A DNA stretch of 64,000 nt from Rhynchopus sp. YZ270_cl-10 (Eukaryota): positions 558,001-622,000 of the forward strand of contig OZ037836.1 in NCBI GenBank assembly GCA_964035575.1, read 5' to 3'. The notes under the pieces are model-generated. The model worked only from the letters and a program-made list of their open reading frames with translations, ran no database searches and was not told the DNA's origin. Positions 26,248-62,952 of the stretch are shown piece after piece. Numbering within the stretch: the stretch's first letter is position 1; every line of letters begins with the position of its first letter. Position numbers and translations under genes: made by a program.

Positions 26248-26671
26248 TACTGTACTGTACTGTACTGTACTGTACTGTACTGTACTGTACTGTACTGTAC
26301 TGTACTGTACTGTACTGTACTGTACTGTACTGTACTGTACTGTACTGTACTGTACTGTACTGTACTGTACTGTACTGTACTGTACTGTACTGTACTGTAC
26401 TGTACTGTACTGTACTGTACTGTACTGTACTGTACTGTACTGTACTGTACTGTACTGTACTGTACTGTACTGTACTGTACTGTACTGTACTGTACTGTAC
26501 TGTACTGTACTGTACTGTACTGTACTGTACTGTACTGTACTGTACTGTACTGTACTGTACTGTACTGTACTGTACTGTACTGTACTGTACTGTACTGTAC
26601 TGTACTGTACTGTACTGTACTGTACTGTACTGTACTGTACTGTACTGTACTGTACTGTACTGTACTGTACT
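26248..26671. repeat. Perfect (TACTG)n microsatellite, about 85 units
   Basis: Seen directly in the sequence. Confidence 0.98.
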
Positions 26672-26688
26672 CCCAATCCCCTGTGGAG

Positions 26689-26818
26689 ACTGTGTATACT
26701 GTGTATACTGTGTATACTGTGTATACTGTGTATACTGTGTATACTGTGTATACTGTGTATACTGTGTATACTGTGTATACTGTGTATACTGTGTATACTG
26801 TGTATACTGTGTATACTG
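26689..26818. repeat. (ACTGTGTAT)n 9-bp tandem repeat, about 14 units
   Basis: Seen directly in the sequence. Confidence 0.97.
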
Positions 26819-28522
26819 AGGAAATTGACCAAAAACGAGAACTTGTCCATTTCGGCAAATTGGCCCCACCACTGGCCGGACGGATTCTGGAAATGCAAAT
26901 GCCGGCATTTAAAAGCTCGCCAAGGAAAAAAAACAATTTTTTCCCAACACCTCTTCCCCCCCCGTATCGGCATGACAACTGGTAGAAACACGGGGAATCG
27001 GTTAAGGCGCTACACCAAAAAATCACGAAATATTTTTTCAACGGAGATTCACGTACATAACTAAATTTGGCCCAAAGTGTCAAAAGTGGGCCTCCAATGT
27101 CGCATTGGACTCATTTCATGGCGATACTGGCCATGTGTGATGGTTATCTCACTTTTTGAAATTTTCATCACATACAAACCTAACACCTGAGAGACAAGCT
27201 CGTGGGTGCTCTATACGGTAATAGCTACCCATTTCTAGCGATTACCACCGATCACGCACCGATCACCACCGATCAGCACCGCTCACACACCGATCACCAT
27301 CGATTACCATCGATCACCATCGATTACCATCGATCACCACCGATCACCACCGATCACCACCGATCACCATCGATCACCGTCAATCACCGTCGACCACCAT
27401 CGATCACCACCGACCACCGTCGACCACCACCGACCACTCACCGATCACCACCGATCACCATCGATCACCATCGATCACCATCGATCACCGGCGATCACCG
27501 GCGATCACCACCGATCAGCACCGACCACGCACCGATCACCATCGATCACCACCGATCACCACCGATCAGCACCGGCCAAGCCCGGCGTCAATCAGCCTAA
27601 AATTGTTGGAGTAGTGCAGTTGCCTCGGTTGTGTTGCCACAGTTGTGCAATCTCCACTGTTTTTTGAGGATTTGGACGAGGGAAAAAAAAAAAACGTAAA
27701 CGACGGTTCGTTGGGATGAATGCGGAGTGTAACCACATCAAAGCATCAAAGGGGAAACATTAAGAAACATGAGTTATGCCAATGAACGACAAGAACTGAT
27801 ACATAACGCAGTTTGTGGAGAGGGAGAGAGGGGCGTCTTAGGACGAGGGAAGGAGAGGAGGAAAATAATAAAACTTGAAAATACCGCAAAACTGGGATGG
27901 TGGTCCTGACAAAAAAAAAAACCCCCCTGTTTTGCGAGATTCGTGAAGGGTTTGCGCAAAAGGTTTCATGCGGGTTCGTGCCGCTTGTAGAATTTTTGTT
28001 TTAAAATACATTTTTCACTTTTGTGACCAAAAATTTTTCCTAAGCAATTTTTGCCTACAAAAGATCAGCTTTTTAATTTCGGAGCCTGTTGTGAATGGGT
28101 CACTTTACGCTGAGAAATGAGTATTTTTTAAAAAAATCCCGAATCCATTTTGAGGGTTGTTTTGCGGAAATCGTGGAATAAACGCAAAAAGCTGAAGATA
28201 CATCTTTCGATAAGAAACGTTGTAAATTATTTCGCATCCACTTTGCCGTTTGGATAAAGAACAACCAGAGACGAAAGGGGGTTTGGGGGGGAAGAGTTTA
28301 ATTCTCGAACGCATCCCCACACTCAGTCACACATAGAAAAGGTGCAGAAACGTCACAAAGAATAATATAAAAATACAACCAACGACCATGCATCTCAAAA
28401 CACCAAGACAATAATAAAACATACGCTGACTTGAAATAACAGAACCAGACGAGGTGTGCCCTTTCCACATGACTGTAGAACGGCGGTTTTTTTACTTTCT
28501 TTTTTTCTTTCTAGTGTCAGGG

Positions 28523-29436: not shown

Positions 29437-31009
29437 TGTCAGGGTTTCCGCCAGGATTTTGGGTTTCAGGAATTGGGGGGGACCATCAAAAAGACCCCCC
29501 CAAAAAATTTTTTCTCCCCGCAAAAGCGGTCGTCGCGCGCTTCGCGCGCGCCTCCCTGCAGGCCACAGAGTGGAGAGGCGAAGGGTGCACCAGGTTAGAT
29601 AGCAGCCATGTCAAGCTTTACAGCTGTGTTGTCTGGTAGAGGTGGTTCGTTTGGAGGTCGGGGGTGGAAGTTAACAAGGTAAGGGGTCTTGTGAGAGTGG
29701 AGGGTGATGGTGTTTGCTTTTTCTATTGTATGGCGCTACAGTCATTACAGTGCTGCAGTGGGAACATGTAATAACTACCCGTCGCTTGCACCGAAGCCTC
29801 CTTAGAAAAAGGGGCAATGCACGGAAGTATCGATGGAAGTATATCAATATCACATAGCTAGCAACACAGCGCCGCAGGCGCACGGTACGCTACTTTTACC
29901 TTTTTAAAAAAGATTGCACCACCCCCTTTTTTCTTCCACTTCTTCTGGCACAGCGAGCCAAATGCTCTGCACGGTGGGGTCGCATGACCACGGGGGGTCA
30001 TCTACAACCTCCAAAACCCCATTTTTCTTGGGGGGGACCATGGTCCCCCAGTGTTCCTAATTTTGCGTTTAAAACGTTTAAAACGTTTTAAACGTTTTAA
30101 ATTATTTAAAACGCGTTTTAAACGTTTTAAACGTTTAAAACTCGAATAAAAAACGGGTGACAGTTCTGCACAAAAAAACGTAAAAAAAGTGGGGGGAATT
30201 TTTCGAATTTTTTTTTTCTGTATCAAAAATCATAGTTTTGGTGCATCTGGGGTCAATTTAGCCTGGTTTTTCTTGGTTTCTCCTGCTAACTTGTTTCCTG
30301 TACGGTACCCTAATGAGTGCGCTAAAACCTGGCTGATCAAGCGCTTGGTGCCAGCATTTGATGTGTCAAAAATTCCCAGCGGGTTCCAGATGGGTAACAG
30401 GGTACTTAAGGCTGAGTATGACAGGGTCATGGTTCCTGTGAGAGCAGCCCTAGCAAAGAGCCTGCACATCTCGGTATACGTTGATGGCTGGAAGGCGCAC
30501 AACGACGAGAAGGTGTTCACCCTTGTCGCGAGGGTGCGGATGCCCGCCCTGTAAGCACAAAAGTTTTGGAGGAGGACTTGCACAATGCGGAGGAGATCTG
30601 CACGCACCTGCATGAGAAAAAGATAAGTTGAGTGGGCTAGTGTGTGATGGGGACACCATGGGACACCACTGTGTCTTCTCTGTCCACAACAGCAGCGGCG
30701 GACGACCTGGAGAAGTTCATGCGGGTGGAGGACTCCCCTGGTAGAGCTGCTGCGATATCGACTAAGCTACCTGCAGGCGACAGCTGGCTTGCCGGAGCGA
30801 TAGAGACTGTGGAGGAGACGGGAGCCTATCGCCACAGCGTACGCGCACCCTTACTGGACCACGACCCCGTGTCACCGTGGGAGTGGGATCGTACGCTGAA
30901 TGACGTGCTGATCACCAGAAATACCGGGTGTCAGCAAGAGTGACTCTGCAAGCAGCGAAGAGAACCGGCAAAGGACGGAACTGGCTCTTGCGGCTCTGCC
31001 ACCCCACAC

Positions 31010-31396: not shown

Positions 31397-32666
31397 AATA
31401 ACTATTTATTCACCTCCTTTTAGCGGGGTTTTATTTTGCGATAACTTCACGCATTTTTTTCCCAGGCGAGGGCTACTTAATTTGCCGAGCGAAGCGAGGC
31501 AAATTGAGTGCACGAGCCTGGGAAAAAAATAAGTGAAGTATCGCAAAATAATCCGCTAAAAGGAGGTGAATACGTAATTTTATTTCACGGGAAATAAAGT
31601 ATACGAAAGGATTTGGCACTTTTAGCGGGACTCATTTATTGTGCAATAACTAACGAGTATGTGTCCCTCCAGGTAGCTCTCATTACCCCCCCGCTAGCTT
31701 TTGCTCGCTGGGAACCTGCAAAAAACTGGTGAACTGGGCCCATACCCTGGTATGTGGGGTGGGATACGCATTTTCGGGGTGGCAGAACCATGTGTGAGCC
31801 ACAGGGTGGTGCACGTGTGACCCCATGCAGTACCACGCAACCCACGTTTTTACACACACAACAACGGCATTTTGCGCGTAGCGCGTACAGTATGTAGCCT
31901 AAAAAGCCCACACCACGTGTACGCATAGCGCGTAGCGTAGCGTGTGGTCGGGTTTGGAAAGCTGCCTCAACGGTACACAAAGCTACATCCCGACCTCTCG
32001 CCACCTCAGTGTCCCCTCGGGTGCGGGAGGTCGGGAAATGGCTGTCGTGCAAGAGCGAGACACATTCAGAAGATCCCCGCCCATCACAGAATATCATGCC
32101 AGCCACCACCTTCCTCACAATGAAGTAAAGGGGGTGGTGTGTCCTTCGTCTTGATAGTGAGATCGTCACGGAGATACACTATGTACGAAACGAAGTCGGC
32201 TTCTGTGGGCTTACCGTCAGTCTTGCCAATGAATTCCTTAAAAAGCGGTCCCATTCACGGACGTACGGTGTCGACAATGCTAGTCCTTACTGTAGTGCTT
32301 GTCCATCTCCTGTCGGAGGACCGTTTGCGTCTTACATCCTTCGGCATGTTGCATGTGTCAGAAAAAATGGGAAAAGGGCAAAAAAAAATTCGAAATTTTC
32401 AATTTTTAGGCGGGTGGTAGTGCAGGATGTACCAAAATTTAGCGTGAAGTTATCGCCAAATAAAACCCCTGTTTTAGCGTGAAAAAAACAAAAATAAAAT
32501 CCCGCTCTGAAGGAATTGCAGTGAAAAAAAGTGAAAAACGCGTGAAATAAAGTTCAATGAGCGGGTTTTTAATTTGCGATAAAAAAAGTGCGTGAAATTA
32601 TCATTAAAAAGAATCCCGCTAAAAGTGCCAAATCCTTCGTATACTTTATTTCCCAGGGGAATAAAA
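31397..32666 (-). mobile_element. Decayed Crypton-like tyrosine-recombinase element
   Basis: Hairpin at about 31400-31579 with a GAA loop at 31491-31493; inverted pair 31578-31630 / 32614-32666. It interrupts the hAT subterminal sequence gagtttaa|aacgttt. Confidence 0.8.
32040..32347 (-). pseudogene. Frameshifted, internally deleted tyrosine recombinase N-terminus
   Basis: Minus-strand frames give YVREWDRF, KPTEADFVSYIVYLRDD and LYFIVRKVVAGMIFCDGRGSSE. These align by eye to YKTEWNKF, QPREEHVVSYLTHLREE and YWCVRKAYVAVCFLSGMRCTE of the 42214..43230 protein. Confidence 0.75.
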
Positions 32667-33517: not shown

Positions 33518-34242
33518 AAGGGGGAGTGGACCTATTATTAGGGTGGACCTATTATGCTATAATAATAGGTCCACCGTTTTTGGGTTTAAATTTAACTTTT
33601 TAAATCTCGATTTTCGGAGAAATTTTTTTTTAAAAATTGGCTGGGGAATATGGTGGGTGTAGGGGAAGGGTGGCACAGGGTACACGACGGGACTCAGTGA
33701 CAAGTGAAAATGACAAGTGAAAGACAAGTGAAAAAGGTGGCAAGTGGTGGCAAGTAAATCACTTGTCATGAACTACTTACTTGTCATGACAAGTGATTTA
33801 CTTGTCATTCACTTGTCATGTCACACCTTTTTCACTTGTCTTTCACTTGTCATTTTCACTTGTCACTGGGTCCCGTAACGAAGGTTTACTACTTTTTCAG
33901 CGGACACGTTTTGGTGCAGTGGTTTGCAGTTGGCCTGCTGATTTGCAGGCAATACACGGCACGGTCGGCAAGCTTGTGTGTCCGCTTTGCAGGAGGTTTT
34001 GAGGGGGGTGGGCGGAGCAGTGACACCTTCCTCTCAGATGTCGCATCAGGTGGCGCAGCAGATGGCGCAGCTGCATCACCAGGAGAAGGAACTGGTGTTG
34101 AGGGTGCTTTTGATGGCACCTGGTCTTCTCTCTTGATGTGCACACTGCCCATCCTGAACAGACGTAACTGACCTTTGTATGTCGGCTCTTCCTAGCCTAG
34201 ACAAGCAGAATTGTCTAAGGGTTGGATTGTTCACCCACTAAC

Positions 34243-40414: not shown

Positions 40415-40948
40415 TTAGATGTAGTTCCCCTGCATCCATGCGGTAACGGTTCTCGCAAACCCACGCACGTCTTCTCTCAGCATCTTTGCCGCCTTTTTGT
40501 TGAGCGGGTCGTCTGGGTTGGGCTCGCTGAATAGAAGCTCCATCCCGAAGATCACCGACTTCAGGGTCAACACCGGACGCCACTCAGCACGAAGAATGTT
40601 AAGGCACACCTTACCATCCTCATCGATGTTGGGGTGGTACAAACGGTATGGGTTGTCGTTCAGGCAGTAGGTCACCTTGGGAGGCTGATGCGGGTAGTCG
40701 AACGGTACGGTCACACGGAACTTAAACGTGCCGCCAGAGTAGTAGCCTTCGCTCGGGCGGAGCGTTAACAGCAAGACGCGCGGGTTCTCCGGGTCGACCT
40801 GCTCAAACGAGGTGCGGCTCCCGGTCAGGTCGATCTCAGCAATGTCCATCGTCAGGCGAATGTCAGCAGAGGCCTTCCCTCCGCTCTTCTTGTCCTCCTT
40901 CTCCTTCTGGAGGGTTGCCATACGCTTCTCAAGACCTTTGCGCAGCAT
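40415..40948 (-). CDS. UBC12: NEDD8-conjugating E2 enzyme (Ubc12/UBE2M)
   Basis: Lysine-rich N-terminal extension, DIRLTMDIAE, YHPNIDEDGKVCLNILRAEWRPVL and EPNPDDPLN. Start MLRKG at 40948; the upstream ORF extension runs into transposon DNA. Confidence 0.85.
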   Translation of the reverse strand: MLRKGLEKRMATLQKEKEDKKSGGKASADIRLTMDIAEIDLTGSRTSFEQVDPENPRVLLLTLRPSEGYYSGGTFKFRVTVPFDYPHQPPKVTYCLNDNPYRLYHPNIDEDGKVCLNILRAEWRPVLTLKSVIFGMELLFSEPNPDDPLNKKAAKMLREDVRGFARTVTAWMQGNYI

Positions 40949-41759
40949 TGTGGTGGGTGTTTTGCCTAAGGGGGGTGTGGGTGTGGGTGTGGGTGTGGGT
41001 GCACAACGGGACCCAGTGACAAGCGACAAGTGAAAATGACAAGTGAAATGGGTGACAAGTAAATGACAAGTGAATGACAAGTGGATCACTTGTCATGACA
41101 AAAAAGTCATTTGTCATGACAAGTGACTTTTTTGTCATTTTACTTGTCATAAATATGGGTAGATGCCAAAAACCCCCCCTCCCCCTAATTTCACTACGAT
41201 TTTTTGAGGTTGTACCAGGTTTTACCAGAAATAAGCGCCGAAAACTGCCCAGAACCACCCCAAAACCATTTTCCGGCGGGTTTTGGGGGCTATTGGGGAA
41301 AAATACACTTTTTTGGGGGTATTTTTTTGTGTTTTTAGGCTATTTTTTACTCCCCATGCCTTACAACCCCAGAACAGATAGACACATAAAGAATGCCCAG
41401 GGTTGGACTCAACACTTACCTTGAAGGTATAGATAAATGCGTCCGTGGGGACTGGTCATGTCGGGGGATCGGAAAAGACGCCCTTCACCGCATGGCTAAG
41501 AGAAAGCGGGATTTTGTTACTTCAGTTTGTTCAGTTTCACAAAGAACGTGTACGAACTGTGGCAATACAGGCCACAATACACATACATGTCCAAAAAAGC
41601 GTCGCATATCATAAAAAAGACCCCAAAACACCCCCCAGACCCCAAAACGTCCCCCAGACCCCCCAAACCCCCCTTGTACATGTGCCTGGGCCTCTCATAG
41701 CCTCCCAACCAGACTTTCCGCGCTGAAGAATCCGATGAAGAATTCTTCGAAAAAAAAAA

Positions 41760-43418
41760 ATAACTAATTATTAGCGTGAAATAAAGTGCACTTTTTTTCA
41801 CGCCCACGTAATTTTGGCTCACGAGTGAGAGTTTATTGCCCGAGCCGCAGGCGAGGGCAATAATAGAGCACGAGTGAGACAAAATACGTGGAAGTGAAAA
41901 AACGCACTTTATTTCAAACTAATACGTAGTTTTGTTTTACAAGTGAAAATGATATTTTTGCTGGGATCCTTCACAAACGAGACGTAAAATAGAGTGATTT
42001 TATGAACAAAATGTGGGTACCTGTAAGTGAGAGTGTGAATGAGAGTAGGGGAACATGTGAACATCAATCAAAAGCAGGGAAGGGGTTACTTTTTTTGATA
42101 TATGCCTCCTATGACTGGTACTAATTACAAGATGTCACCACTCATCTCGCCTGTAGGGGGGGGGCAGGTGTATAGAGCATCACAGAAGGGGGGTTTTTTT
42201 TTTGCACTCATGATCATGGTTTGTTCTGTTGCACATTGATGTTAATCTTGACTTCTTGTGGCGTCTGAGTTGGGGGACTGTTGTTCTGTGTCAACAGCTG
42301 TGACATCGCAACTTGACCGGCCTGTGTGACTTCGGTGTACCTTTGTGGCATTGCCTGACTGACCCACCCATAGTGGCGTTGCATCTGTACAATAGATGCT
42401 CCTGCCTCAGCGGCTTGAGTCGCAGAAGACCTGCGGAAGCTGTGCCCAGTGTACGAACCGTCCAGCGCAAGCACCCTCGCGACTTCTGCAGGTATGCCGT
42501 ACATTTTGTTGATGCCAAGAGGTTGCACACGAAAGGTCCCAGTAGTAGTTCTGTCAGCTGTCGTCTTAGTTCCAGTGATGAAGAAGCGACCCTCCTGTGA
42601 AACTGGTGAGCGCCGGTTCAGGTACTCCTCCACCACACAAAAGTAGATGCTGTCTCTTGGTACCACAAACCTCCCACGCTCCATGTCGGCCTTTTTCACC
42701 TTAGCACAGTGCTGGTACGTGAAGAGGTATCCCACTGGTGATTCCTGATAATTTGTCATCTCAAGCATCAGTGCTTCTGTGCATCTCATTCCCGACAGAA
42801 AACACACCGCGACGTAAGCCTTGCGGACACACCAGTAGCAGTCGCTCAACTCGCTCATCTTGAGAAACATCTCCACTTCTCCCTTCGAAAACGTCTTGCT
42901 CTTCTTCGTCGATTCGTCACTTCCCCAGGTCTTCAGCAACAGCCCGATGCGGTGGTACTCCTTTAGTGAAAAGTCGAACTCCGTCTTGAACATAAAGTTG
43001 AGCTTAGAGTAGCACGACCATAATGAGCTGGCTTTGTAGCTGCGTTCTTCGCGCAGGTGTGTCAAGTAAGAGACCACATGTTCTTCTCTTGGCTGCTTCC
43101 GCCCCGTGATTTTATTGTGTTGTAAAAACTTATTCCACTCCGTTTTGTATGCAGTGCTTGACTTCAACCCTGCCAGAAGCTCGGTCTCATACAGATCCTC
43201 CATAGCCTCCTTCTTCTTGGTCCTTGGCATGATTTGTAGGGTGGAGTGTGTGGTTTTGTGACTGACAGAAAACAGTGAAACTTTTTTTCACGCCAGTGAA
43301 ACTTTTTTTCACGCCTCCAGCGAAATTACTAAGAGCAAGCGTGAAAAAAAGCTCACTTTATTTCACGCCCCGTTTGTGAAGGATCCCAGCAAAAAGTCAT
43401 TTTCACATGTGATATAAA
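41760..43418 (-). mobile_element. Apparently intact Crypton-like tyrosine-recombinase transposon
   Basis: Hairpin 41762-41931 with a GCA loop at 41847-41849; inverted pair about 41931-41997 / 43353-43418; single recombinase ORF; no reverse transcriptase. Confidence 0.85.
42214..43230 (-). CDS. Tyrosine recombinase (phage-integrase family, Crypton-like)
   Basis: 338 aa. N-terminal core-binding region, then SGMRCTE (Arg I), AKVKK (probable Lys), YTGHSFRRSSAT (HxxR), RHYGW and PQRY (Tyr). The catalytic set appears complete. Confidence 0.92.
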   Translation of the reverse strand: MPRTKKKEAMEDLYETELLAGLKSSTAYKTEWNKFLQHNKITGRKQPREEHVVSYLTHLREERSYKASSLWSCYSKLNFMFKTEFDFSLKEYHRIGLLLKTWGSDESTKKSKTFSKGEVEMFLKMSELSDCYWCVRKAYVAVCFLSGMRCTEALMLEMTNYQESPVGYLFTYQHCAKVKKADMERGRFVVPRDSIYFCVVEEYLNRRSPVSQEGRFFITGTKTTADRTTTGTFRVQPLGINKMYGIPAEVARVLALDGSYTGHSFRRSSATQAAEAGASIVQMQRHYGWVSQAMPQRYTEVTQAGQVAMSQLLTQNNSPPTQTPQEVKININVQQNKP

Positions 43419-45770
43419 TCCCAAAAAAAAAATTTTTTCCAGTGAAGAATTCTTCATTGGAAAAAAATAACAATAAAAAAAAATTCCCGAAAAAAAAAAA
43501 TTCCCCCACATAAGCCTCTGAGAGTGACCAGAACTGGCCTCATGAACAAAGTGACCCCGTCACAGCCAGAACGCGACTCAATTGATCAAACGCCGAACGA
43601 AAAGGAAACATGCAGCATCAGGGCCTTCAACGTGTCGAAGTTAAGCCTTAACTTCGACAACTTTTTTTTTTTTGGTTTTTTTTTTTGTCGAAGTTCGACA
43701 AATCTAAAAAAAAATATGGGATTTTGGCAAAATCCTTTTATTTCTGACCGAGTTGCAGGGTAGTCCACGGGAGAAACTCGGTTCAGGGTTTTAACTTTAA
43801 CATTCTCCTGTGATCCACTGTGACCATTTGGACAGAGCTCGTAGAAACCAACGAGGAGTGAGCCAGACAAAAGTAGCGTACCGTGCGCCTGCGGCGCAAG
43901 CAGGCATCCCACCCTTCCCATGACATAGTTTGGCTGTAAATAAAGCGCCATGGTATGCGCAATATTTGAAATGTTGCGTACAGTGGCTTCGCCAGGGACC
44001 TTTGTTGTTATAAATGTACTGAGCTTACTGATACGACAGGTGTGATACCCACTACGGCTTGTGGATCACCAGTGGCTACAAAGCTACCAATGCTGCTTGT
44101 GTTGAAACACACGTGTGTGGGACAGGCGGATTTTTTTGGCTGACCGAGTTTTCAAAAATGACCAAAACCTGTATAAACCCCTGAGAGCTTCTCCCTGTGT
44201 TTTGCTACACCCGCGCGCGCGAAGCGCGCGCGGGCTCGGGGAGGTCAGTTTTTTTTTTTTTTTTTTACTTCGACAAAACTGTGGACAGACTTTGTCGATG
44301 GTTGAAGGCCCTGTGCAGCATGGCGAAAGAAAAAAAGTAGCGTACCGTGCGCCTGCGGCGCAAGTTTGCAACCCACCTTCCCATGACATAGTTTGGCTGT
44401 AAAAATGTGCAATTTTAAGCGCAATTTTTTGAAATGTTGCGTACCGTGGCTTCGCCAGGAACCTTGATGCTATGACCACCGTTTCTTTTTGTACACATAC
44501 TGAGGTTACTGATAATTCGTGTGTCTGGTGCAAATATCAATGAAGTTGAACTCCTCAGTTGGATACCCGAGGAATTCTCTCATTCCGGGTCGGGCTCGAC
44601 CGCGCTTTTTTATTTTATTTTTTGGAAATCTCAGGGACTGCGCTGGGACGCGTTTTTTGGGCCAGAACTCTAGTGTCTCCGCCGGAGGCCCCGAACTTGC
44701 GTTAACTTCCGGCGCGCGTAGCGCGCCGGGCTCGGGACGTATTTACCTTTTATGTACAAAATCACGATTCTTCATCAAAAATCGTACCCAATGAAGGAGC
44801 GCGGAAACACTGCTCCCAACAGAACTAAAAAAAAATCAAGTGAAATTAGGGGGAGGGGGGGGTTTTGGCACCGACCCATATGACAAGTGATTCACTTGTC
44901 ACTTGTCATTGGGTCCCGTCGTGTGGGTGGTTAAAATTCAGGGCGGTGGATACTAAAATCCGATCTCACCTGGTAGGTGTTTTTCCAGAGCTGAAATTTC
45001 TTTTCTGGAACCAGGCTTGGAAGGAGGAGAACATCCCAGTTATGTTACGCACGCGAAAATAATAAAACCTACATCCTCGAACTTTTTATACACAAACTAT
45101 TTCATTGAACGCATCGCTTTGGGGTATTAAATACAACAAAATCCTCACGGGAGGAACTGCACTGACAGATGGAAATCTGGGTGCAGATGGAAAAAAGAGA
45201 GAAGTCGAAAGTGCAAACGCCTCACCGTTCATCGGCGGATGCAGGCACCTCCACCAAAGAAAGCTTTGTAACACGACCTTATTCGCGCCCTTACTTAGTT
45301 TAAATTTGGCTAGGTTTTTACAGGAATTGATTGACGCTTCTGCAGTTAGTGTACATCTGTGTATAATTACACAAAAAAAAAAAAAAGAGAAAAGAGTAAA
45401 ACATCACCTCTGGGCACCGTCGGATGCAGTGTCCTGCTTGTGAAGAAAGAAAATACTACGGGTGTCAATAACTATCTTCACACAGAAAAACGGGGAAACG
45501 AAATAGGGGGAGAGTTTTGCTAGTTGTACGCTGCCACCACTCAGTGTCCCTCTCATGAAGAGAGAATAAATAGCTCTTGAAGCTCAGGCTTCACCCTTGC
45601 ATTTGCCTTGGCTTTTCGCAAAACCAACATATTTCCCCGCAACTGATTTCCAACATACACGAGGAGCTCGAGGACACTGCCAGCACATCACATGAATAGA
45701 GGGGTGTGTGTGTGTTTGATAACTAATAGGGGTAATTCTTGCGCAGAATATGGCCCCATATGTGCGTGCG

Positions 45771-48700
45771 TCAGTGCATTTTTATGGCGACAGGTTCGAA
45801 GTACTTCTTCTCCCACGCGTGGCGAAAGCGTTCGTACACAGGCCCATCACCCTGTGCAAGGATTTGGTCTGCTTCGTCGGTGGAGTCCTTCTCCTGTGGT
45901 AGGCATAGGTCGTAGGTGGTAAATCTTAACATCATAACGTACACTCTCTGTTGATTCTAAAACGGGGGTGGGAAAAATCGCGGAAGGTAAATTGGGGAAG
46001 AGGTTCAAAAGTTGGAACGCTTCCTCACCCCATATCACACAAAAAAAGAACACCCCCAGATCACACACTAAATAGTGGAGCACACGGGTGGCTACACTAA
46101 TACAACCAAATTTTCAAATAAAACAAATACACACCTCAAACTGGCCGCTGATGATGAGAGCAGCCCAGTTGTTCCACTTCATGTGCGGGTCCCTCTTCTC
46201 TGCCTCCTCTAGCTGGTACATCCATTCGCCAGCGTGGGCTGGGTCCAGCGCGGACACAAGCTCGTACAGGGAGAGCTTACGGGGAAGCTTGCGGAAGGTC
46301 GCCCCCTCGACAAGGCGGAATAGAAAACACGCCACCACCTCGGACCGTACTGTCTGGTCCGTAAGCACACCAAACTCACGCTCCCTGCAGTACCTCTCCA
46401 GCGCATATGCCCACGAGATTGTAGGTGACAGGAACGAAAACCTGCGCATCACAGACGTGCCCATGTTCCCGACACGTCCCTCCCCAGTCACAACTGACGC
46501 CGTGGTGTCCAGGTTAAACTGCTGTGCAGCACGTCTGCAAAGATGTGCCGCACCGCACGCATAGACTCGGTGACTCACAACATAAGTCGCAGCGTTGAAC
46601 GAACACGCGAACCTGTCACCCATAAACGGCTCCGTCACACCTTTCTGCTTCGAGAACACAGCAACGAAGGCCTCCAGCAGGATTGAGTGCAGCTCCAACA
46701 CCTCTGTATCGGGCTTGTCCTCGCAGTGTCTGTGGAAGTCCTTGATGTTCACGACTGTATAGGAGAAGCGTTTGTGGTTGAGGACACAGACGAAGGGGTT
46801 CACAGCAGTGCGGTCCGCACGCCAGGCAGACTCGTTGAGGCGTGTGCTGGTGGTGGAGCTTGTACGCTGGAAGGAGTTCGTGAAGGAGTGGCCCAACTCA
46901 GCAGCATGTAGAGTAGCGTCAGGGTCACTGCTGCAGTCACGTATCAGCTGCACAGACTGCGGCATGTAGCTCTTGTACAGCTTCAGGTTCACAAGCATGT
47001 GCCCAATAGCACGGTTCATCATGCGCAGCTCACTGATGACCGACGTCTCGTCAGGAACGGTGCTGATCTTCAGCACCGCTGCCTTGGCCATAAGCACCGC
47101 AGTGTCCTCAAACGGACGTGTCAGCACGTTGTTGAAGAGCATGAACACCACAACAGACGCCATCACCAGCGCCACCATCACAAGGATCGTTCTGTTCGCC
47201 TTCTGCCGCAGTGCCTTGTTCGTGTTCTTCTCAAGAACGTCCAGATCCTGCAGTGTCCGCATGTTCGTCGCGTCAATCTTCCGCAGAATGTCCTCACGTG
47301 GGATCATCGTCGCAACGGTAAAGGGCTCCATCTCTCGTGTGTCGGAGTTTGTGTCAAACGTCCGTGTCTGCACAAGGAAGGACTTGCTCACGGGGTTGCG
47401 TCTCACTTCGTCAGAAGCATGCAGGAAGTGTGGCGTGTCTGGGAAGTACCTCCGCACAAAGGTCAGGCTGTCGATGCGACCCTTGAAGAACTGTCCCACG
47501 TAGTACGGGTTCGAATGCTTGCGTGTCCTACTTCCCAACACTCCCCTACCACGTGAGTCAGTACCGTGAGCATGAAGTGTGCCGTTCACGTACAAGCTGC
47601 AACGTCCACCACCCATCACAGCTGTCACCGTTGTCCACGCACCCACAGGGAAGCCACGTCTCCCAAAGGCATCCACGTAAGGTGCTGTGCTGCACCCGTA
47701 CTGCAGAACAAACAGATAGATCTGCCCGTTCCCAAACAGACGGAAGTTCGTCTCCCCCACAAGCGAGTCTGTGAACAGACGAGGTGTGGTTGCACTTGGT
47801 GATGCTTCGTCGTACAGCACATCAGGCCTGATGCGCATGCTCACCATGAACTCCGTGTAGCGTGTGAAGTCTGGGAGCAGCATGCACTTCAGCGCGGCTG
47901 TGCTGCTTATGCGCGAGGCAACACAACGACGTCCGTCTGCATGCACAAGCTCCGCATCGAACCCGTCGTACTTGCTCTTCCACGGCTCCCCTGCTGCACT
48001 CGCACGTGACCGCTCCACAACTGGTGCCTGCCGTGTCAGGTTCCTGTACACGTACTGCACTGTCGACCCGTCAAACTCAAGCACGTCCTTCCCACGCTGT
48101 GTGTCGTGCACAACACAGTTCCCACACCCACCGTCACGCACCTCCGTTTCCCAGTGGTGCATGCTCGTGTCCACAGCAGCACCGTTCTCCACACTGAACA
48201 TTGCGAGTGTTGTGTGCGGCGACTCTATCCAGTAATCAGCCTGGTCAAACTCCCCGTAGTGCTGCACCCATCTGTCCTCTGCTGGCGTTGCTGCTGCACC
48301 CGCGTCCAGGTAGTGGCCCACTGCGTTCACATCGACGGCGGGCACGTCGCAGAAGTGGTGCAGCGCATACACGTCGTGAAGGTATGGACTGAACATGACT
48401 GCCACATACTCCTGCGACTCTGTGCCTGTGTTGTATCCCCCCAGAATCACTTTGTCGTGTCTGTCCACCACAAGCACAGTCATGTTCGCCAGGCTTGAGC
48501 CCTGAAGACGTGCCGTGTCCAAGGCTCTGTCCACAAAGTACTGGAGGCGCTCCTGCACAGCAATCGTCCCGTGGTACGGCATTGTGCTGCCCTCCATGTT
48601 CGACCCGGTCAGTGCCATGTAGGCAACGATGGGAACCTGATCGTACCACGTCCGTGAGTAGAACTGCACGCGTCCGGTGCGCCAGATGATTTTCTTCTTT

Positions 48701-50850
48701 GCATACTGTGTGCCTCGTGTGACTGCGAGAGGATCGCCACCCAGGTTGCCAGCGTACTCGGTGCTAACGTTGAGCTCCTCACGTGAGTGTGCAGCGACGA
48801 AATCTGGGCCAGGTTCTATTTCCGACCCCGCCAGTTTCCCGTAGCTCAGTACGCCGTAACGCCAACCGTCCTGTGTCTCACCGACACTCCCAACCACGCC
48901 GTCTCCTCGTTCCACGTCAGGTCTGTTGTCGGTCTTAAAGCACCGCGCAGGTGAGCACCCCATGTAGAAGCCACGTGTGGTGAACACACGCACAAAAAGG
49001 TGAAAGTATGTCATAAAAGAATTCATGTACATCTCTTGAAACCGTGGTTCGAACTGTGCCCAGCTCCCGTCGTAGTGAACACCCACAAAGCCGTTGTGTG
49101 TGATCATCATTCTGTCCTCCACTGCATTGAAGCCCACAGTCAGGCCGTCAAAGATCTTGTCCATCACAATTGTGCGTGTGATGTTCGACAGCTCAATCGT
49201 GTTCTGCTTCTCGGCAGCAAGAGAACTGTCGAGTGCCTTCCGTCCGTTCGCCGTTGCTGTGTCTGTTGAGTCCTGCCCTGCAACGTAGACAAGAGAGAAG
49301 GATACGCCAGACGTGATCACCACCACCGACACACTCACAGCCATGCTTGCCACCTTCAGCGGGATCGCAAACCCAGACACAGCCATCTCCTCAGGCACCT
49401 CCACTGCATCACGGCGCTGTTTCATCACGACCCCCAACATCACCAAGGTGGGAACCAAGATAAGAGCGAGAGATGTCGCGTCGGTCAGGTCTAGTTCTGC
49501 AGACGTGTCCTCCTCCTCAGCAGCAACGACTACCTGTGGTGGTAAAGACGTCACGGGCACGGTGTCCGACCAGTTCCCGTCAGTGAACGTGAGTGCATCA
49601 AGTGAGTAGCCAACACCAGGAATGTGCCTTCCACCACCCCGTGCTATCCACGCCATGAACTGTGCCGTCACCTTGCGTCCCACTGTGTGCACAGGGATCC
49701 CGACACGCATTGAGTATGCCTTCACCTTGTAGTACTCTCGCGAACCGTATGTTGTGCGTGTCATGTACACAAAGGCTGTGACACCACTTTCATTAGCGTA
49801 CCGTGCCTGGCGCACAAGTGGACAGGAACTTTGGTACGAGGCAAAGACCATCTTCCCCTTGAGTGACGCAAAGTCCGAAGCAGCACAGCCCCCACGTGGC
49901 AGCTCTGTCGTGTACACTGCTTCGTCCTTCTGTGTCTCAAACGGAAGTGTCCGCACAAGCTGCAGAAGGGTCTCCCTCTTGCGTGGACGCAGGTCGTTCC
50001 CCATAACACACACGTGCTCTGCCTCACCAGGGATCCACATCGCAAGTGGACACTTCTCGCAGATGCGGTCCTGCTGTGCGTTGTCCACCACTTTGCATGT
50101 GTCTGCACGGTCCACTTTGTTGTTGAAGCAGCCGTCCCACGGGTAGTCCTCAAGGTTGTCCAGGGCAGTCGGCGGCAGCTCAGAGCACTCAAACTTGATG
50201 TGGCCACGGACCCTTGCCCCGCTGTTCACAGCAGCAACTATGTAGTCGGCTTCGTGTCTGTCGGCGAAGAGCGTGGGCATGATGTTCCCTTCACGCAGCA
50301 GCACACCGGACATGGAAATGCGCTGTTCGAACATGAACCAGTCGTACACAATACCCACAGCAGCACCAGTCTGCTCCACAAAATCCTGCTTCGTAACGTA
50401 CGTGCAGGTGCCCCTGTACACAAGCACAATCTTCCCGTCGTACACCTTCCCGTCACCCAAGGAGTAGTCACTTGCCTTGCACCCACGGGTACTTTTACTC
50501 GCAATACTCTCGTTCCCGACCACAACAATGTCCATCTCCTTGTTGTTCAGTGGGTGGTATGCATCAATGTGCCCGTCGGGTGCCCACGGCTCGAACTTGT
50601 TGTCCGTGAGACACAGCCACATCCCTGCCACCTCGGGCGGCTCTGTCACGACAAGCCGCACGGGACACTGGTAGTAGCAGTAGTCGTACAGCCGCCACGT
50701 GGTCCGGTTGCACATGATGTCCTTACGCCAGCCGTCGTAGATGTACGCACTCGGCATCTCAGGGATGAACTTCCGGAGGCAGTCTGCACGGCGCACCGGA
50801 CACTGCGGCTCTGCACCCCACGCAAGCAGCACCAGCACCGCTGCCAACAT
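45771..50850 (-). CDS. Large receptor: signal peptide, 2 PA domains, TMs, extracellular region with LamG/ConA, TM, HAMP, degenerate cyclase; probable exons 46135..50850 and 45771..45893
   Basis: PA: GKIVLVYRGTCTYVTK. LamG: WTTVTAVM..SLYVNG..FKGRIDSL. Cyclase-like: VVNIKDFH, FMGDRF, VTGEGRVGNMGT. A GT..AG phase-0 intron at 45894-46134 is inferred. Confidence 0.75.
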
Positions 50851-55607: not shown

Positions 55608-58600
55608 TCAGCAAAGACTGGAGTAACTGTGTGCACTCCTGTTGCACAAACGACGCAGCACTTCATGTGAAACTAGCGCAATAGGCTGGCTACATACCTC
55701 GAACTTGCCCTTGAAAATGAGGGTCGTGACGTTGTTCCACAGTGTCGTAGGGTCCTTGCTGGCAGCCTCCTCCAGCTGGTACATCCACTCGTCCAACTTC
55801 GACACGTCGCGAAACTGCAGCAGTTCAAACAAACACATCGGCTTCGGAAGCTTCTTAAACGTGACCCCATCAACAATGCGCAACACAAACGACGTCTCCA
55901 CCTCTGCATACACGAACTGGTCCGTAAGCACACCAAACTCACGCTCCCTGCAGTACCGCTCCAGCGCATATGCCCACGAGATTGTAGGTGACAGGAACGA
56001 AAACCTGCGCATCACAGACGTGCCCATGTTCCCGACACGTCCCTCCCCAGTCACAACTGACGCTGTTATTTCCACACATATTTTCCTCGCTGCAACACGA
56101 CACAACTGCGCAGTACTGCACGCATGCACTCGATGGTTGCCCACGTGTGTCGCAGCGTTGAACGAACACGCGAACCTGTCACCTGTGAAAGGCTCCGTCA
56201 CACCCTTCTGCTTCGAGAACACAGCAACGAAGGCCTCCAGCAAGTTCGAGTGCAGCTCCAGCACCTGTGTGTCGGGCTTGTCCTCGCAGTGTCTGTGGAA
56301 GTCCTTGATGTTCACGACTGTGTAGGAGAAGCGTTTGTGCACCACTGCACACAGGAACGGATGCACAGGATCCTTCTCTTTGCGCTGTTGGGATGACCCC
56401 CCGCACTTACGTGACAGAGAGGAGGCTTTCGAGCGGTGTGAACTGGATGAGTCGCTCATCTTGCTCTTGGTAATGTCATCGTCATCCTCACTAGTCAGTT
56501 CACCAAGCTGCACAGACTGCGGCATAAAGCTCTTGTACAGCTTCAGGTTCACAAGCATGTGCCCAATAGCACGGTTCATCGTGCGCAGCTCACTGATGAC
56601 GGACGTCTCGTCAGGAACGGTGCTGATCTTCAGCACCGCTGCCTTGGCCATAAGCACCGCAGTGTCCTCAAACGGACGTGTCAGCACGTTGTTGAAGAGC
56701 ATGAACACCACAACAGACGCCATCACCAGCGCCACCATCACAAGGATCGTTCTGTTCGCCTTCTGCCGCAGTGCCTTGTTCGTGTTCTTCTCAAGAACGT
56801 CCAGATCCTGCAGTGTCCGCATGTTCGTCGCGTCAATCTTCCGCAGAATGTCCTCACGTGGGATCATCGTCGCAACGGTAAAGGGCTCCATCTCTCGTGT
56901 GTCGGAGTTTGTGTCAAACGTCCGTGTCTGCACAAGGAAGGACTTGCTCACGGGGTTGCGTCTCACTTCGTCAGAAGCATGCAGGAAGTGTGGCGTGTCT
57001 GGGAAGTACCTCCGCACAAAGGTCAGGCTGTCGATGCGACCCTTGAAGAACTGTCCCACGTAGTACGGGTTCGAATGCTTGCGTGTCCTACTTCCCAACA
57101 CTCCCCTACCACGTGAGTCAGTACCGTGAGCATGAAGTGTGCCGTTCACGTACAAGCTGCAACGTCCACCGCCCATCACAGCTGTCACCGTTGTCCACGC
57201 ACCCACAGGGAAGCCACGTCTCCCAAAGGCATCCACGTAAGGTGCTGTGCTGCACCCGTACTGCAGAACAAACAGATAGATCTGCCCGTTCCCAAACAGA
57301 CGGAAGTTCGTCTCCCCCACAAGCGAGTCTGTGAACAGACGAGGTGTGGTTGCACTTGGTGATGCTTCGTCGTACAGCACATCAGGCCTGATGCGCATGC
57401 TCACCATGAACTCCGTGTAGCGTGTGAAGTCTGGATGCAACATGCACTTCAGCGCGGAGACTGTGCTGGTTGAGTTCACAACAGGCGAGGCAACACAACG
57501 ACGTCCGTCTGCATGCACAAGCTCTGCATCTAACTCATAGTACTTGCTCTTCCACGGATTCCCTGCTGCACTCGCACGTGACCGCTCCACAACTGGTGCC
57601 TGCCGTGTCAGGTTCCTGTACACGTACTGCACCGTCGACCCGTCAAACTCAAGCACGTCCTTCCCACGCTGTGTGTCGTGCACAACACAGTTCCCACACC
57701 CACCGTCACGCACCTCCGTTTCCCAGTGGTGCATGCTCGTGTCCACAGCAGCACCGTTCTTCACACTGAACTGTGCGGCGGTTGTATACGGCGACTCTGT
57801 CCAGTGCGCAGCCTGGTCGAACTCCCCGTAGTGCTGCACCCATCTGTCCTCTGCTGGTGTTGCTGCTGCACCCGCGTCCAGGTAGCGTGCAAGGCCACTC
57901 ACATGCATCGCAGGCGACTCGTCTACGGCAACAAGCGCGTATACAGCCTGCAACTGTGGCACCCACTGCATTGCCACAATTTCTCTGTCTTTTTCTGTCC
58001 CCGTGTTGAAGCCACCCAGAATCGCCCTGTCGTGTCTGTCCACCACAAGCACAGTCATGTTTGTCAGGCTTGAGCCCCCAAGCCGTGCTGTGTCAATGGC
58101 CGAGCGAATGAAGTCCTCAAGACTCTCCTGCACAGCAATCGTCCCGTGGTACGGCATTGTGCTGCCCTCCATGTTCGACCCGGTCAGTGCCATGTAGGCA
58201 ACAATCGGTGGTGAGAATCGCCAGAGCACGGAGTAGAACTGCACACGTCCTGTCTTCCAGATCACTTTCTTGATCCCGAACTGTGTGCCTCGTGTGACTG
58301 CGAGAGGATCGCCATTAATGTTGCCGATGTACTCAGTGCTTGCGTTGATGAGGGACACCGGGTGTATGTATTTGTGCGTTGTACTGGGCTCTGATTGGGA
58401 ACCTGCAACATTGACGTATCCCAGCAGACCATACAGCCAACCAGCCTGTGTCTGCTCAACAGTCCCAACCACACCGTCTGCTCGTTCCACGTCAGGTCTG
58501 TTGTCCGTCTTCAAACATTGTTCTTCACGGCACCCCATGTAGAAGCCACGTGTGGTGAACACACGCACAAAAAGGCGAAAGTTTGTCATAAACGAGTTTG

Positions 58601-60437
58601 TGAACATCTCAAAGAACTGTGCCTCGAACTGTGCCCAGCTCCCGTCGTAGTGAACACCCACAAAGCCGTTGTGTGTGATCATGACTCTGTCCTCCACTGC
58701 ATTGAAGCCCACAGTAAGGCCGTCGAAGATCTTGTCCATCACAATTGTGCGTGTGATGTTCGACAGCTCAATAGTGTTCTCCATCTCACTCATAACCAGT
58801 TTGCCTGCAACCTTCCGCCCGTTCGCCGTTGCTGTGTCTGTTGAGTCCTGCCCTGCAACGTAGACAAGAGAGAACGTCACAAGCGACGTGATCAGCAGCA
58901 GCGACACACTCACAGCCATGCTTGCCACCTTCAGCGGGATCGCAAACCCAGACACAGCCATCTCCTCAGGCATCTCCACTGCATCACGGCGCTGCTTCAC
59001 CACGATCCCCAACATCACCACTGCAGTCATCACAACCACCACAAGACACACAACCGTCACAGTGTCGGTCAGGTCCAGATCGTCAGACGTGTCCTCCTCC
59101 TCAGCAACAGCCGCTACCTGCAGTGGTGGCGCCGTCATGGGCACAGTGTCCGACCAGTTCCCGTCAGTGAACGTGAGTGCATCAAGTGAGTAGCCAACAC
59201 CAGGAATGTGCCTTCCACCACCCCGTGCTATCCACGCCATGAACTGTGCCGTCACCTTGCGTCCCACTGTGTGCACAGGGATCCCGACACGCATTGAGAA
59301 TGCCCTCACCTTGTAGTACTCTCTCGAGCCGTAATTCGTACGTGTCATTGAAACAAAGGCTGTGACACCACTTTGTTCAGCGTTCCGCACCTGGTGGACA
59401 GGCGGACAGGCACTTTGGTACGACGCAAAGACCATCTTCCCCTTGAGTGACGCAAAGTCCGAAGCAGCACAGCCCCCACGTGGCAGCTCTGTCGTGTACA
59501 CTGCTTCGTCCTTCTGTGTCTCAAACGGAAGTGTCCGCACAAGCTGCAGAAGGGTCTCCCTCTTGCGTGGACGCAGGTCGTTCCCCATGACACACACGTG
59601 CTCTGCCTCACCAGGGATCCACATCGCAAGTGGACACTTCTCGCAGATGCGGTCCTGCAGTGGGTCGTCTAAGGATTGGCACGTGCCTGCAAAGTCCAGT
59701 TTGTTGTTGAAGCAGCCGTCCCACGGGTAGTCCTCAAGGTTGTCCAGGGCAGTCGGCGGCAGCTCAGAGCACTCAAACTTGATGTGGCCACGGACCCTTG
59801 CCCCGCTGTTCACAGCTGCTGCAATGTAGTCGGTTTCGTGTCTGTCTGCGTGCAGGAATGGGAAGTTCGTTGCTGTCGTGGCAGACGGGCCACCCATAAT
59901 TGAACGTTGTTCACCGGTGCTGTAGTCGTGCAGAATACCTACAGCAGCACCAGACTGCTGCGCCAGATACTGCTTCACAACGTACTTGCATATACCCCTG
60001 TACACAAGCACAATCTTCCCGTCGTACACCTTCCCGTCACCCAAGGAGTAGTCACTTGCCCTGCACCCAAGGTTGCTTTTTGACTTGATGCTGTTGTTCC
60101 CCACCACAACAATGTCCATCTCCTTGTTGTTCAGTGGGTGGTATGCATCAATGTGCCCGTCGGGTGCCCACGGCTCGAACTTGTTGTCCGTGAGACACAG
60201 CCACATCCCCGCCACCTCGGGCGGCTCTGTCACGACAAGCCGCACGGGACACTGGTAGTAGCAGTAGTCGTACAGCCGCCACGTGGTCTGGTTGCATATG
60301 ATGTCCTTGCGCCAGCCGTCGTACCTGTACGTACCCGCCATCTCGGGGATGAACTGCCGTAGACAGTCTTGTCTCCATACTGGACACTGAGGCTCTGCAC
60401 CCCACGCAAGCAGCACCAGCACCGCAGCAACCGACAT
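55608..60437 (-). CDS. Paralogous large PA/LamG/HAMP/degenerate-cyclase receptor; probable 59-nt intron at 55639-55697, so the true 3' end is uncertain
   Basis: Start MSVAAVLVLL at 60437; long stretches are identical to the 46135..50850 gene. Inferred splice GAG|GTATGT...CAACAG|GAGTGC. Confidence 0.78.
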   Translation of the reverse strand: MSVAAVLVLLAWGAEPQCPVWRQDCLRQFIPEMAGTYRYDGWRKDIICNQTTWRLYDYCYYQCPVRLVVTEPPEVAGMWLCLTDNKFEPWAPDGHIDAYHPLNNKEMDIVVVGNNSIKSKSNLGCRASDYSLGDGKVYDGKIVLVYRGICKYVVKQYLAQQSGAAVGILHDYSTGEQRSIMGGPSATTATNFPFLHADRHETDYIAAAVNSGARVRGHIKFECSELPPTALDNLEDYPWDGCFNNKLDFAGTCQSLDDPLQDRICEKCPLAMWIPGEAEHVCVMGNDLRPRKRETLLQLVRTLPFETQKDEAVYTTELPRGGCAASDFASLKGKMVFASYQSACPPVHQVRNAEQSGVTAFVSMTRTNYGSREYYKVRAFSMRVGIPVHTVGRKVTAQFMAWIARGGGRHIPGVGYSLDALTFTDGNWSDTVPMTAPPLQVAAVAEEEDTSDDLDLTDTVTVVCLVVVVMTAVVMLGIVVKQRRDAVEMPEEMAVSGFAIPLKVASMAVSVSLLLITSLVTFSLVYVAGQDSTDTATANGRKVAGKLVMSEMENTIELSNITRTIVMDKIFDGLTVGFNAVEDRVMITHNGFVGVHYDGSWAQFEAQFFEMFTNSFMTNFRLFVRVFTTRGFYMGCREEQCLKTDNRPDVERADGVVGTVEQTQAGWLYGLLGYVNVAGSQSEPSTTHKYIHPVSLINASTEYIGNINGDPLAVTRGTQFGIKKVIWKTGRVQFYSVLWRFSPPIVAYMALTGSNMEGSTMPYHGTIAVQESLEDFIRSAIDTARLGGSSLTNMTVLVVDRHDRAILGGFNTGTEKDREIVAMQWVPQLQAVYALVAVDESPAMHVSGLARYLDAGAAATPAEDRWVQHYGEFDQAAHWTESPYTTAAQFSVKNGAAVDTSMHHWETEVRDGGCGNCVVHDTQRGKDVLEFDGSTVQYVYRNLTRQAPVVERSRASAAGNPWKSKYYELDAELVHADGRRCVASPVVNSTSTVSALKCMLHPDFTRYTEFMVSMRIRPDVLYDEASPSATTPRLFTDSLVGETNFRLFGNGQIYLFVLQYGCSTAPYVDAFGRRGFPVGAWTTVTAVMGGGRCSLYVNGTLHAHGTDSRGRGVLGSRTRKHSNPYYVGQFFKGRIDSLTFVRRYFPDTPHFLHASDEVRRNPVSKSFLVQTRTFDTNSDTREMEPFTVATMIPREDILRKIDATNMRTLQDLDVLEKNTNKALRQKANRTILVMVALVMASVVVFMLFNNVLTRPFEDTAVLMAKAAVLKISTVPDETSVISELRTMNRAIGHMLVNLKLYKSFMPQSVQLGELTSEDDDDITKSKMSDSSSSHRSKASSLSRKCGGSSQQRKEKDPVHPFLCAVVHKRFSYTVVNIKDFHRHCEDKPDTQVLELHSNLLEAFVAVFSKQKGVTEPFTGDRFACSFNAATHVGNHRVHACSTAQLCRVAARKICVEITASVVTGEGRVGNMGTSVMRRFSFLSPTISWAYALERYCREREFGVLTDQFVYAEVETSFVLRIVDGVTFKKLPKPMCLFELLQFRDVSKLDEWMYQLEEAASKDPTTLWNNVTTLIFKGKFEVCSQPIALVSHEVLRRLCNRSAHSYSSLC

Positions 60438-61614
60438 TGTGTTACAACAGACCTGCCCGTGGTGGTGTGGGAGTGTACAGGGTGGAGACAAACGACACAG
60501 CACCCCTTCACTTCCGGCTACGATGGTACGTAGACAAGAAAGAACACTAGCAATAATGTACCTCTCACAGCACACACACACACACATCCAGAAAACAAAT
60601 GTTTTTTTTTTCCTCTTCGTTTGTCGCTCTGCAGAACTGCAGAAAGCACGTCCTCACGGCTCTGTCACTCCAGTCAGACCAGGAGAGAGAATAAGACATT
60701 TTCGACAACAAACAAGACACAGACGAAGAGCGAAGCGCACAAAAGGCTGCTCATTGGCCCGATGTAGGTCTCCTTTGGGGATACCTGGTCATGCCTCTCG
60801 TGTGGTGTATGCGAGGTTCTCGCCGGTGGTCCTCTTCCCACCTTGCTGTGTTGGGAGAGTCAATAGTGGAGCCAATCCCCCAGCACTGATAGCTTTCGGA
60901 GATGAGCAAGAGAACAGTAGACAAACAACGTGCGGTGCCTCTCCTGGGGGACACTGGGTCAACGTGAAGGGAGGCAAATAGCGGTTCATGAGTCGCAGTG
61001 ACCAGGGTCATGAGGTTTGGAGGTGCTACAGCATCACAGAATAAGTGAAGGAAAGAAAGGGAGGGTGAGCAGGGAGAGGGGAGAGTGGGGGGTATGTGAC
61101 TTCTGTCTTTTTGAGCCAAGTGCATTGTTTCTGGCATGTCGCCGGAAGCAACAGTGTTGCATCAAAACAAAAAAGAACAAAACAAAACACAAAGATGGCA
61201 AGCCTCCCAAACCGCTTGAAACCAAAACTGAAAAAAGGGAAAAAAGGAAAAAGGAAAAAGGTAAGGGGCGGGTAAAAACAGACACGCACAGCACCTGAAC
61301 ATATGATAAAAACAAGTAAGTGATAACAGTGATTATCTTTCTTTTGTTTTCTTTTTTTTATGAAAACTTAGTTGTCTCAGTGTAGACACCCGAGGATGTG
61401 CTCCACTGGACAAAACGCTTTTCCGTAACTGTTGATTATCTTCTTTTTTTGTTTTTCTGTTTCTTTCCGCTCGTTTTCGTAATATCTACACGTTGATTTT
61501 TGAATTCCAATAAAATCAAAAGTAAAAACCAAACCACCAACAACCACAATAACCAGATAAAGAAGAAAAAGAAAATAGAAAACAAAACAAAACAAAACAA
61601 AACACACTACGGTT

Positions 61615-62920: not shown

Positions 62921-62952
<32 letters not shown>

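Follow-up and report, generated by a model that had tools for sequence, protein, structure and literature searches.

A mobile element of about 1657 bp, whose sole gene encodes a tyrosine recombinase, occupies positions 41761 to 43417 of the window (the whole 64-kb stretch of DNA that was analyzed) and carries next to its left end an internal segment that is the imperfect complement of its own joined right and left ends. In this segment, here called the junction mirror, one arm of a terminal hairpin (A') is followed directly by an arm (B) that pairs with the far end of the element (B'). We consider it likely, with a probability of roughly 0.7, that the element transposes as a single DNA strand which is folded to make its own recombination site.

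Extent, gene and terminal layout

The element is mobile and its ends are fixed. It is seated in a poly-A tract (41750-41760 on the plus strand, resuming at 43418) without a clear target duplication, and because the target is such a tract the ends are uncertain by one base; they were set at 41761 and 43417 by analogy with the register scan of two other families (F2 and F3) and of a sister element in the window. A-tracts flank other copies too. In sequencing runs X6, X7, and X8 the element was recovered as a single unbroken contig from 41750/3/4 (41750-41754) to 43418 in different flanks, and further A-rich flanks surround it in runs X1 and X9. Run X7 also contained an empty site, with a joint (41759>43416) that skips 1656 nt, and an identical recombinase protein was found on 37 contigs. 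The preliminary description of this DNA had left the ends to be fixed from copies and empty sites; the copies in the sequencing runs share their boundaries, and the ends are now refined to 41761-43417 (±1 nt). The copy in the window is intact and recently mobile. The same description had proposed looking for circles that join B' to A. No right-left joint of this element was among the joints listed for runs X1, X5, X7, and X9, nor among the 15 of 40 given in another listing, all from contigs of duplex libraries, which a small single-stranded circle could escape; one natural right-left junction was found in a relative (L033, see below).

The recombinase gene (42214-43230, minus strand) encodes a protein of 338 aa with a Cre-like fold. 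The open reading frame, running from 43230 to 42214, matches the Pfam domain Phage_integrase (E 3e-9), and its structure model (pLDDT 90) is closest to Cre (TM 0.72), with a TM of 0.54 to integron integrase; no ssDNA-specific part was identified in the model. R149, H263, R266, W289, and Y298 are present, as described earlier. The lysine that had been listed among the conserved residues fared differently: the conserved Lys column is occupied by A176, and the adjoining K177 is, judging from the sequence, the likely catalytic lysine. The element is indeed free of reverse transcriptase (RT), its only enzyme being a tyrosine recombinase with an intact R-H-R-Y tetrad, as in Cryptons, with no RT or DDE transposase. 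Likewise, scans of 38 aligned and of 23 long relatives found no RT domain.

Reading from the left on the plus strand, the first three bases (TAA, 41761-41763) are unpaired in the fold and likely form the crossover side of the left end, a three-base position common to the sister element and to families F2 and F3. They are followed by arm A of the hairpin (41764-41846), an apex loop GCA with a C-G closing pair, of the DNA mini-hairpin type (41847-41849), arm A' (41850-41929), which pairs with A and is the first half of the mirror, the mirror centre TT (41930-41931), and arm B (41932-41997), which is the second half of the mirror and the complement of the right end. Arm B' (43353-43417, plus strand) forms the right end, as given by its complementarity to B and by the run contigs. 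The A/A' hairpin is self-complementary from 41755 to 41938 (75% over 187 columns) and folds as DNA with -50.9 kcal/mol (z -10.3), an energy equaled by none of 200 shuffles, while B and B' (41931-41997 against 43353-43418) match at 85% with an E of 4e-14 within the 64-kb window. The reverse complement of A'B spans the joined ends gapless or with a bulge of 1 nt, according to the position chosen for the ends within the A-tract. The layout outlined in the preliminary description is real and its repeats lie where they had been placed: A' abuts B, and A'B is the reverse complement of the joined ends, imperfect at 75-85%, in an alignment that crosses the joined termini. Since 10 other hairpins of similar score occur in the window, the hairpin alone proves little; it is the A'-B adjacency and its conservation that lie beyond chance. 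The two termini show no complementarity between themselves but are each complementary to the internal mirror, so that a comparison of end versus end could overlook it.

A 13-nt motif (GCGTGAAAWAAAG or its complement) occurs in four copies between 43281 and 43368, which are candidate recombinase-binding sites, and recurs in both hairpin arms (A and A') as well as in the sister element. Palindromes of the form 12-6-12 are found at both ends of the element, and a 30-nt palindrome is shared near both. Outside the element, GAAGAATTCTTC palindromes lie at 41736-41749 and 43433-43466, on either side of the target A-tract, the flank being a host repeat. The element is also enclosed, over 3.9 kb, by the outer inverted arms (41002-41205 and 44829-44923, 86-91%) of a ATGACAAGTG-rich host repeat, of which a compact palindromic relative is located at 33687-33876; run contigs join across the two outer arms.

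The sister element (31399-32664, 1266 bp) is decayed and has the same layout. Its hairpin spans ~31402-31577 with a GCGAAGC apex at 31489-31495, the mirror centre is at 31578-31579, B reaches to ~31637, and B' covers 32607-32664, with a faint recombinase remnant at ~32047-32242 on the minus strand. It has its first bases and the 13-nt motif in common with the main element, and a paralogous empty site was found at ~30028-30156 on the minus strand.

Conservation of the layout among relatives

A HMMER scan returned 1770 relatives of the recombinase at E 0.001, and a word-based protein search returned nothing beyond the element's own cluster. A profile scan yielded 64 metagenome loci at ~24-40% identity, 24 of which have a long, imperfect hairpin next to the gene; none was found in the remaining 40, many of which are short contigs. 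A set of 22 non-redundant hairpin families, including the main element and its sister, was subjected to a layout test in which the segment adjoining the hairpin was scored against the far end of every family. Near-identical copies (L033, L039, L042, L044, and L056) were dropped before the counts, L054 was kept out of the mismatch counts, L024 was added manually, and the upstream hairpin of L047 was picked manually. The score against the own far end reached at least 28 in 13 of the 22 families and 9 had no far-end match; the families are related, hence these counts are not independent. In the cross-family null (462 pairs) the 99th percentile was 27 and the maximum 30. For 12 of the 13 matching families, the distance between arm and hairpin is at most 10 nt, and the outer-side control scored at least 28 in only two families, one of them via a host repeat. 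The A-loop-A'-B...B' layout is therefore a family trait. According to the preliminary description, the proposal depended on other copies having the same A'-B adjacency and the same boundaries, and both recur: the boundaries are common to the copies in other runs, and the adjacency is kept in the 13 families.

A quick tree, which serves only to show the spread of the layout, placed it in three deep clades (insect proteins, the window protein, and gut-metagenome elements). Specifically, the insect NCBI proteins and six architecture-bearing loci formed one clade and the window protein fell in a separate one. One architecture-bearing locus, L015, has 63% identity to a protein of Tribolium castaneum; an Atlas search with the Tribolium homologue returned integrase clusters, the arthropod one first, and no new lead. 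Viral contigs gave 37 pattern matches, none of which was confirmed, a narrow pattern in GTDB genomes gave one weak and partial case among 9 matches, on a 1.9-kb contig, and no Rfam match came near the gathering score. Two recombinase relatives, P0095 and P0103, carry a BTB/POZ domain (under the Pfam cut-off in P0103), which resembles either a KCTD1-type domestication or a gene-model fusion. Faint tblastn matches (E ~0.01) to three family proteins at 17956-18141 of the window are possibly due to chance.

Among the relatives, family F2 (1540 bp) has five full copies and one without hairpin, 99% alike, and F3 has two copies; the ends of both are fixed by differing flanks. The copy without hairpin (L041, position 2777) has its start exactly at the mirror centre, with all of A-loop-A' missing, and may represent a precise deletion made by the recombinase or by replication. 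At the start of the L033 contig, 55 nt of the right end are directly joined to the left end with zero host bases between them, a junction which, seen on one contig, may derive from a circle or from a tandem pair. Further variants of the hairpin were observed. In L055 and L056, which are 97% identical, the central ~30 nt of the hairpin are exactly inverted (flip-flop). The mirror centre of L021 (296-409, 2784-2831) is itself a perfect 28-nt palindrome, and L047 has a second hairpin at 2156-2260 that is 90% perfect. L022 (1702-2203) has a hairpin and an inverted arm pair on one side of the gene with the opposite mismatch bias, and is possibly a separate small element.

Strand asymmetry, junction register and the proposed reaction

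Stem mismatches were counted on the strand that reads the hairpin first in 20 families, and these amounted to 73 A·G versus 11 C·T. The bias runs one way in 17 families, is opposite in 1, and is tied in 2 (p 1.4e-4, the families being related). The A/A' stem of the main element follows it, with 12 A·G versus 2 C·T mismatches and two tandem GA/AG pairs. Of the 2x2 loops, 16/35 are tandem GA/AG and 0/35 the complementary TC/CT. Tandem sheared G·A pairs stabilize DNA stems. The bias is kept in both gene orientations, in 6 of 8 families with the gene directed at the hairpin and in 11 of 12 with the gene directed away from it, and thus it does not follow the mRNA. For G·T versus A·C the overall difference was not significant (31 versus 21, p 0.21). 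Exceptions are L026, with the opposite bias, L022, with 6 A·C versus 1 G·T, and L055, with an inverted apex. GNA triloop caps are present in 8 of the 20 families (4 recognized by script and 4 by eye) and belong to a mini-hairpin class that, in the available text of PMC13037366, is extraordinarily stable in DNA and much weaker in its RNA tetraloop version. Double-sided compensatory changes numbered 5, 4, and 2 in three family pairs, in which one-sided breaking changes (6, 6, and 6) were at least as common. Standard energies give no choice of strand, since the hairpin z is nearly equal on the plus (-10.3) and minus (-10.8) strands, and CGAG could be a motif that is bound in the duplex. The one-strand A·G bias in any gene orientation, together with the frequent mini-hairpin caps, points to a folded single DNA strand and backs the earlier suggestion that one strand of the element folds.

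The register at the joined ends is equally specific. Three bases of the joined form stand opposite two T's of the mirror in F2, F3, and the sister element, for each of which the best centre length was 2 when lengths from 0 to 6 were scanned. The main element fits this register within its ±1 nt; the registers of eight single-copy loci are fitted and not independent, and were excluded from the register count. In the main element the mirror centre lies opposite the three-base left end when the ends are joined, or opposite the two A's with which the target flank begins. The mirror centre therefore complements the A-rich beginning of the target flank, and not the bases with which the element itself starts.

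These features can be assembled into the following scheme for the single-strand reaction that we infer. The hairpin-first strand would be exposed by replication or by hairpin extrusion, A would pair with A' and B' with B, and both host flanks would thereby be brought together over the continuous mirror strand. The recombinase would then exchange only the folded strand, linking the right and left ends into a single-stranded circle and the flanks to each other. The other strand would still carry the element, so that the donor could be either kept or cleanly lost. The circle would refold into a duplex site, made of its junction and the mirror and containing a 3x2 loop. A single exchange of strands between this site and a duplex target rich in A would produce a Holliday junction, to be resolved by replication as in CTX phage and integron cassettes, with the two T's of the mirror centre pairing with the incoming target A's. 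Such a scheme would explain why clean excision and copy gain have both been seen in an active CryptonF, as the available portion of PMC9977147 reports. An A follows the right end in 6 of 8 F2/F3 copies. The left flanks of F2 end in TAA, TAA, GTA, and CTT, with at most AA microhomology, and the folded-strand model leaves unexplained that the left end of F2 and F3 is joined to its flanks with little or no homology.

Other explanations account for parts of these observations. In a classical duplex Crypton the mobile form would be a double-stranded circle, and the mirror would be another duplex site in inverted orientation, serving either as an accessory binding array or for a Flp-like inversion by which the circle is amplified. 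The published model is of this kind as far as the available parts of PMC3212892 and PMC13565253 go, and the Cre-like fold of the recombinase, the repeated 13-nt motif, and the 12-6-12 palindromes at both ends would suit it, while the inverted hairpin tip of L055 versus L056 indicates that inversions do occur. We nevertheless hold it to be unlikely. It offers no obvious reason for A·G to prevail over C·T on one strand and in register, for the mini-hairpin caps, or for compensatory pairing over ~80 bp; moreover, the inverted copies remain 75-85% alike without homogenization, and the L033 junction has no host bases.

A non-autonomous DIRS-like retroelement, copied from RNA by an RT acting in trans, with the mirror as a splint that brings the cDNA ends together to form a circle, as happens in DIRS-1, would share the logic of the layout with the ICR (internal complementary region) found in DIRS, which is essential in DIRS-1. 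According to the same source, in its available part (PMC7192593), DIRS-1 cDNA is single-stranded and DIRS-1 proteins act in trans. However, neither the element nor its 23 long relatives have an RT, and long inverted terminal repeats are absent. The ICR of DIRS-1 is an exact complement, whereas here there is a mismatch at the junction itself, and the orientation of the gene relative to the mirror varies while the folded strand is constant. An RT-bearing partner with these ends was not seen in the 64 loci, judged by element length and by the ORF lists of 19 loci, and we give this origin only a slender chance. That the hairpin and arms are a by-product without a role, arising as binding motifs were locally duplicated in a genome rich in palindromes, would agree with the 10 other hairpins in the window, the 13-nt motif at both ends, and the absence of the whole hairpin from L041. 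It would leave unaccounted for that layout and base-level register are kept across families at 25-32% protein identity, with DNA mostly unalignable, and that the outer-side control rarely reaches 28. The cross-family far-end test largely refutes this reading, which we regard as very improbable.

Relation to known systems and genomic context

The family probably belongs to CryptonI, an assignment made from the published description. As portrayed in the available text of PMC3212892 (Kojima and Jurka 2011), in which a Tribolium Crypton is placed in this group, CryptonI elements have a recombinase only, no C-terminal domain, a length of 1528-1980 bp, and non-autonomous derivatives. The present element also lacks a C-terminal domain and falls within 1.5-2.0 kb. 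As expected of Cryptons, it is interspersed and multi-copy with empty sites, as are the F2/F3 copies at differing flanks. It differs from CryptonI as described in that text, which is restricted to insects and has no direct or inverted terminal repeats, in having a terminal hairpin and a junction mirror and in that the hosts include a diplonemid-like protist. The other Crypton groups fit less well. DUF3504, characteristic of CryptonA, was matched by 0 of 38 members at E 0.01. CryptonF and CryptonS have a C-terminal GCR1_C domain or a conserved extension and measure 2-6 kb; the element has 338 aa and 1.66 kb, and it lacks the 4-6 bp terminal direct repeat of the CryptonF/S type.

Among retroelements, DIRS-1 resembles the element in having a tyrosine recombinase and an internal segment that is complementary to both termini, its halves adjacent (PMC7192593 and PMC8969392, available parts). 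The complementarity of this segment is 75-85% in our case. DIRS-1 differs in possessing Gag, RT, RNase H, and long inverted terminal repeats, all absent here, and the mirror of the element is imperfect at the junction, with only a 3-nt loop between the mirror and the left-end arm. A single-stranded DNA stage is reported for DIRS-1 in the accessible text of PMC7192593; for the element we infer one. The attP(+) site of CTX phage and the attC site of integrons resemble the proposed site of the element in being made of one folded strand with an asymmetric centre. In CTX this centre has 12 against 7 nt and a single exchange is resolved by replication (bioRxiv 2021.09.09.459576, available part), and integron integrases are similarly described as using a folded site with resolution by replication (PMC4792948, available part). 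These systems are bacterial, and CTX borrows the host XerC while integron cassettes carry no enzyme gene, whereas the element is eukaryotic, has its own enzyme, and would complete its site by joining its two ends. In Vibrio, the strand-biased circularizing integrative elements also use a tyrosine recombinase, and one specific strand is made circular, but they are bacterial, 7 kb long, and have four genes, and the available text of PMC9345347 mentions no junction mirror.

The accessible text of PMC13465315, PMC4157794, PMC6681497, PMC8969392, and PMC13565253 either assigns an ICR to DIRS only or gives no such feature for Cryptons. A literature search, with most subscription papers and Repbase Reports outside its scope, found no recombinase-only element with this layout. 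Thus, the combination of hairpin and mirror is apparently undescribed in print, and the mechanism is probably new. A 2026 review, in its available part (PMC13565253), states that Crypton transposition still lacks an experimental demonstration and that the double-stranded circle is an assumption, and curation guides give a short direct repeat as the sole feature of Cryptons (PMC8969392, available part). The mirror gives the ends at base level and predicts a substrate, which oligonucleotides would suffice to prepare, along with a strand and a crossover point; it also supplies an annotation rule for such elements and their gene-less derivatives. The element, being intact and having moved recently, offers a ready test case, with which the question of how Cryptons move becomes directly testable; its recombinase is also a possible small ssDNA-donor integrase. 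We lean slightly toward a still broader reading, namely a widespread class of eukaryotic transposons in insects, diplonemid-like protists, and gut eukaryotes that would move as self-folded single-stranded circles with their own Cre-like enzyme, the mirror building the site and pairing with the first target bases. If true, this would be the first mechanism of the integron/CTX type in eukaryotes and the likely ancestor of the ICR of DIRS. The layout suggests how DIRS retroelements could have obtained this region from a DNA element.

The host, a marine protist, is euglenozoan-like, as the preliminary description had supposed: the Hsp70 of the window (61615-63459, minus strand) has its best named match, at 76%, in Diplonema papillatum (full-length hits of normal size). 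An element of this type in such a host is thus borne out, but it is not peculiar to it, the family being wide and including insect elements. Elsewhere in the window, a ubiquitin-conjugating enzyme gene was found at 40415-40948 (minus strand). Several features were labeled by eye, namely an 8- to 9-nt tandem array (26053-26985), several ubiquitin-plus-LRR-like genes (361-6144 and 19166-20506), and two large paralogous genes that are membrane-receptor-like (46114-50850 and 55608-60587).
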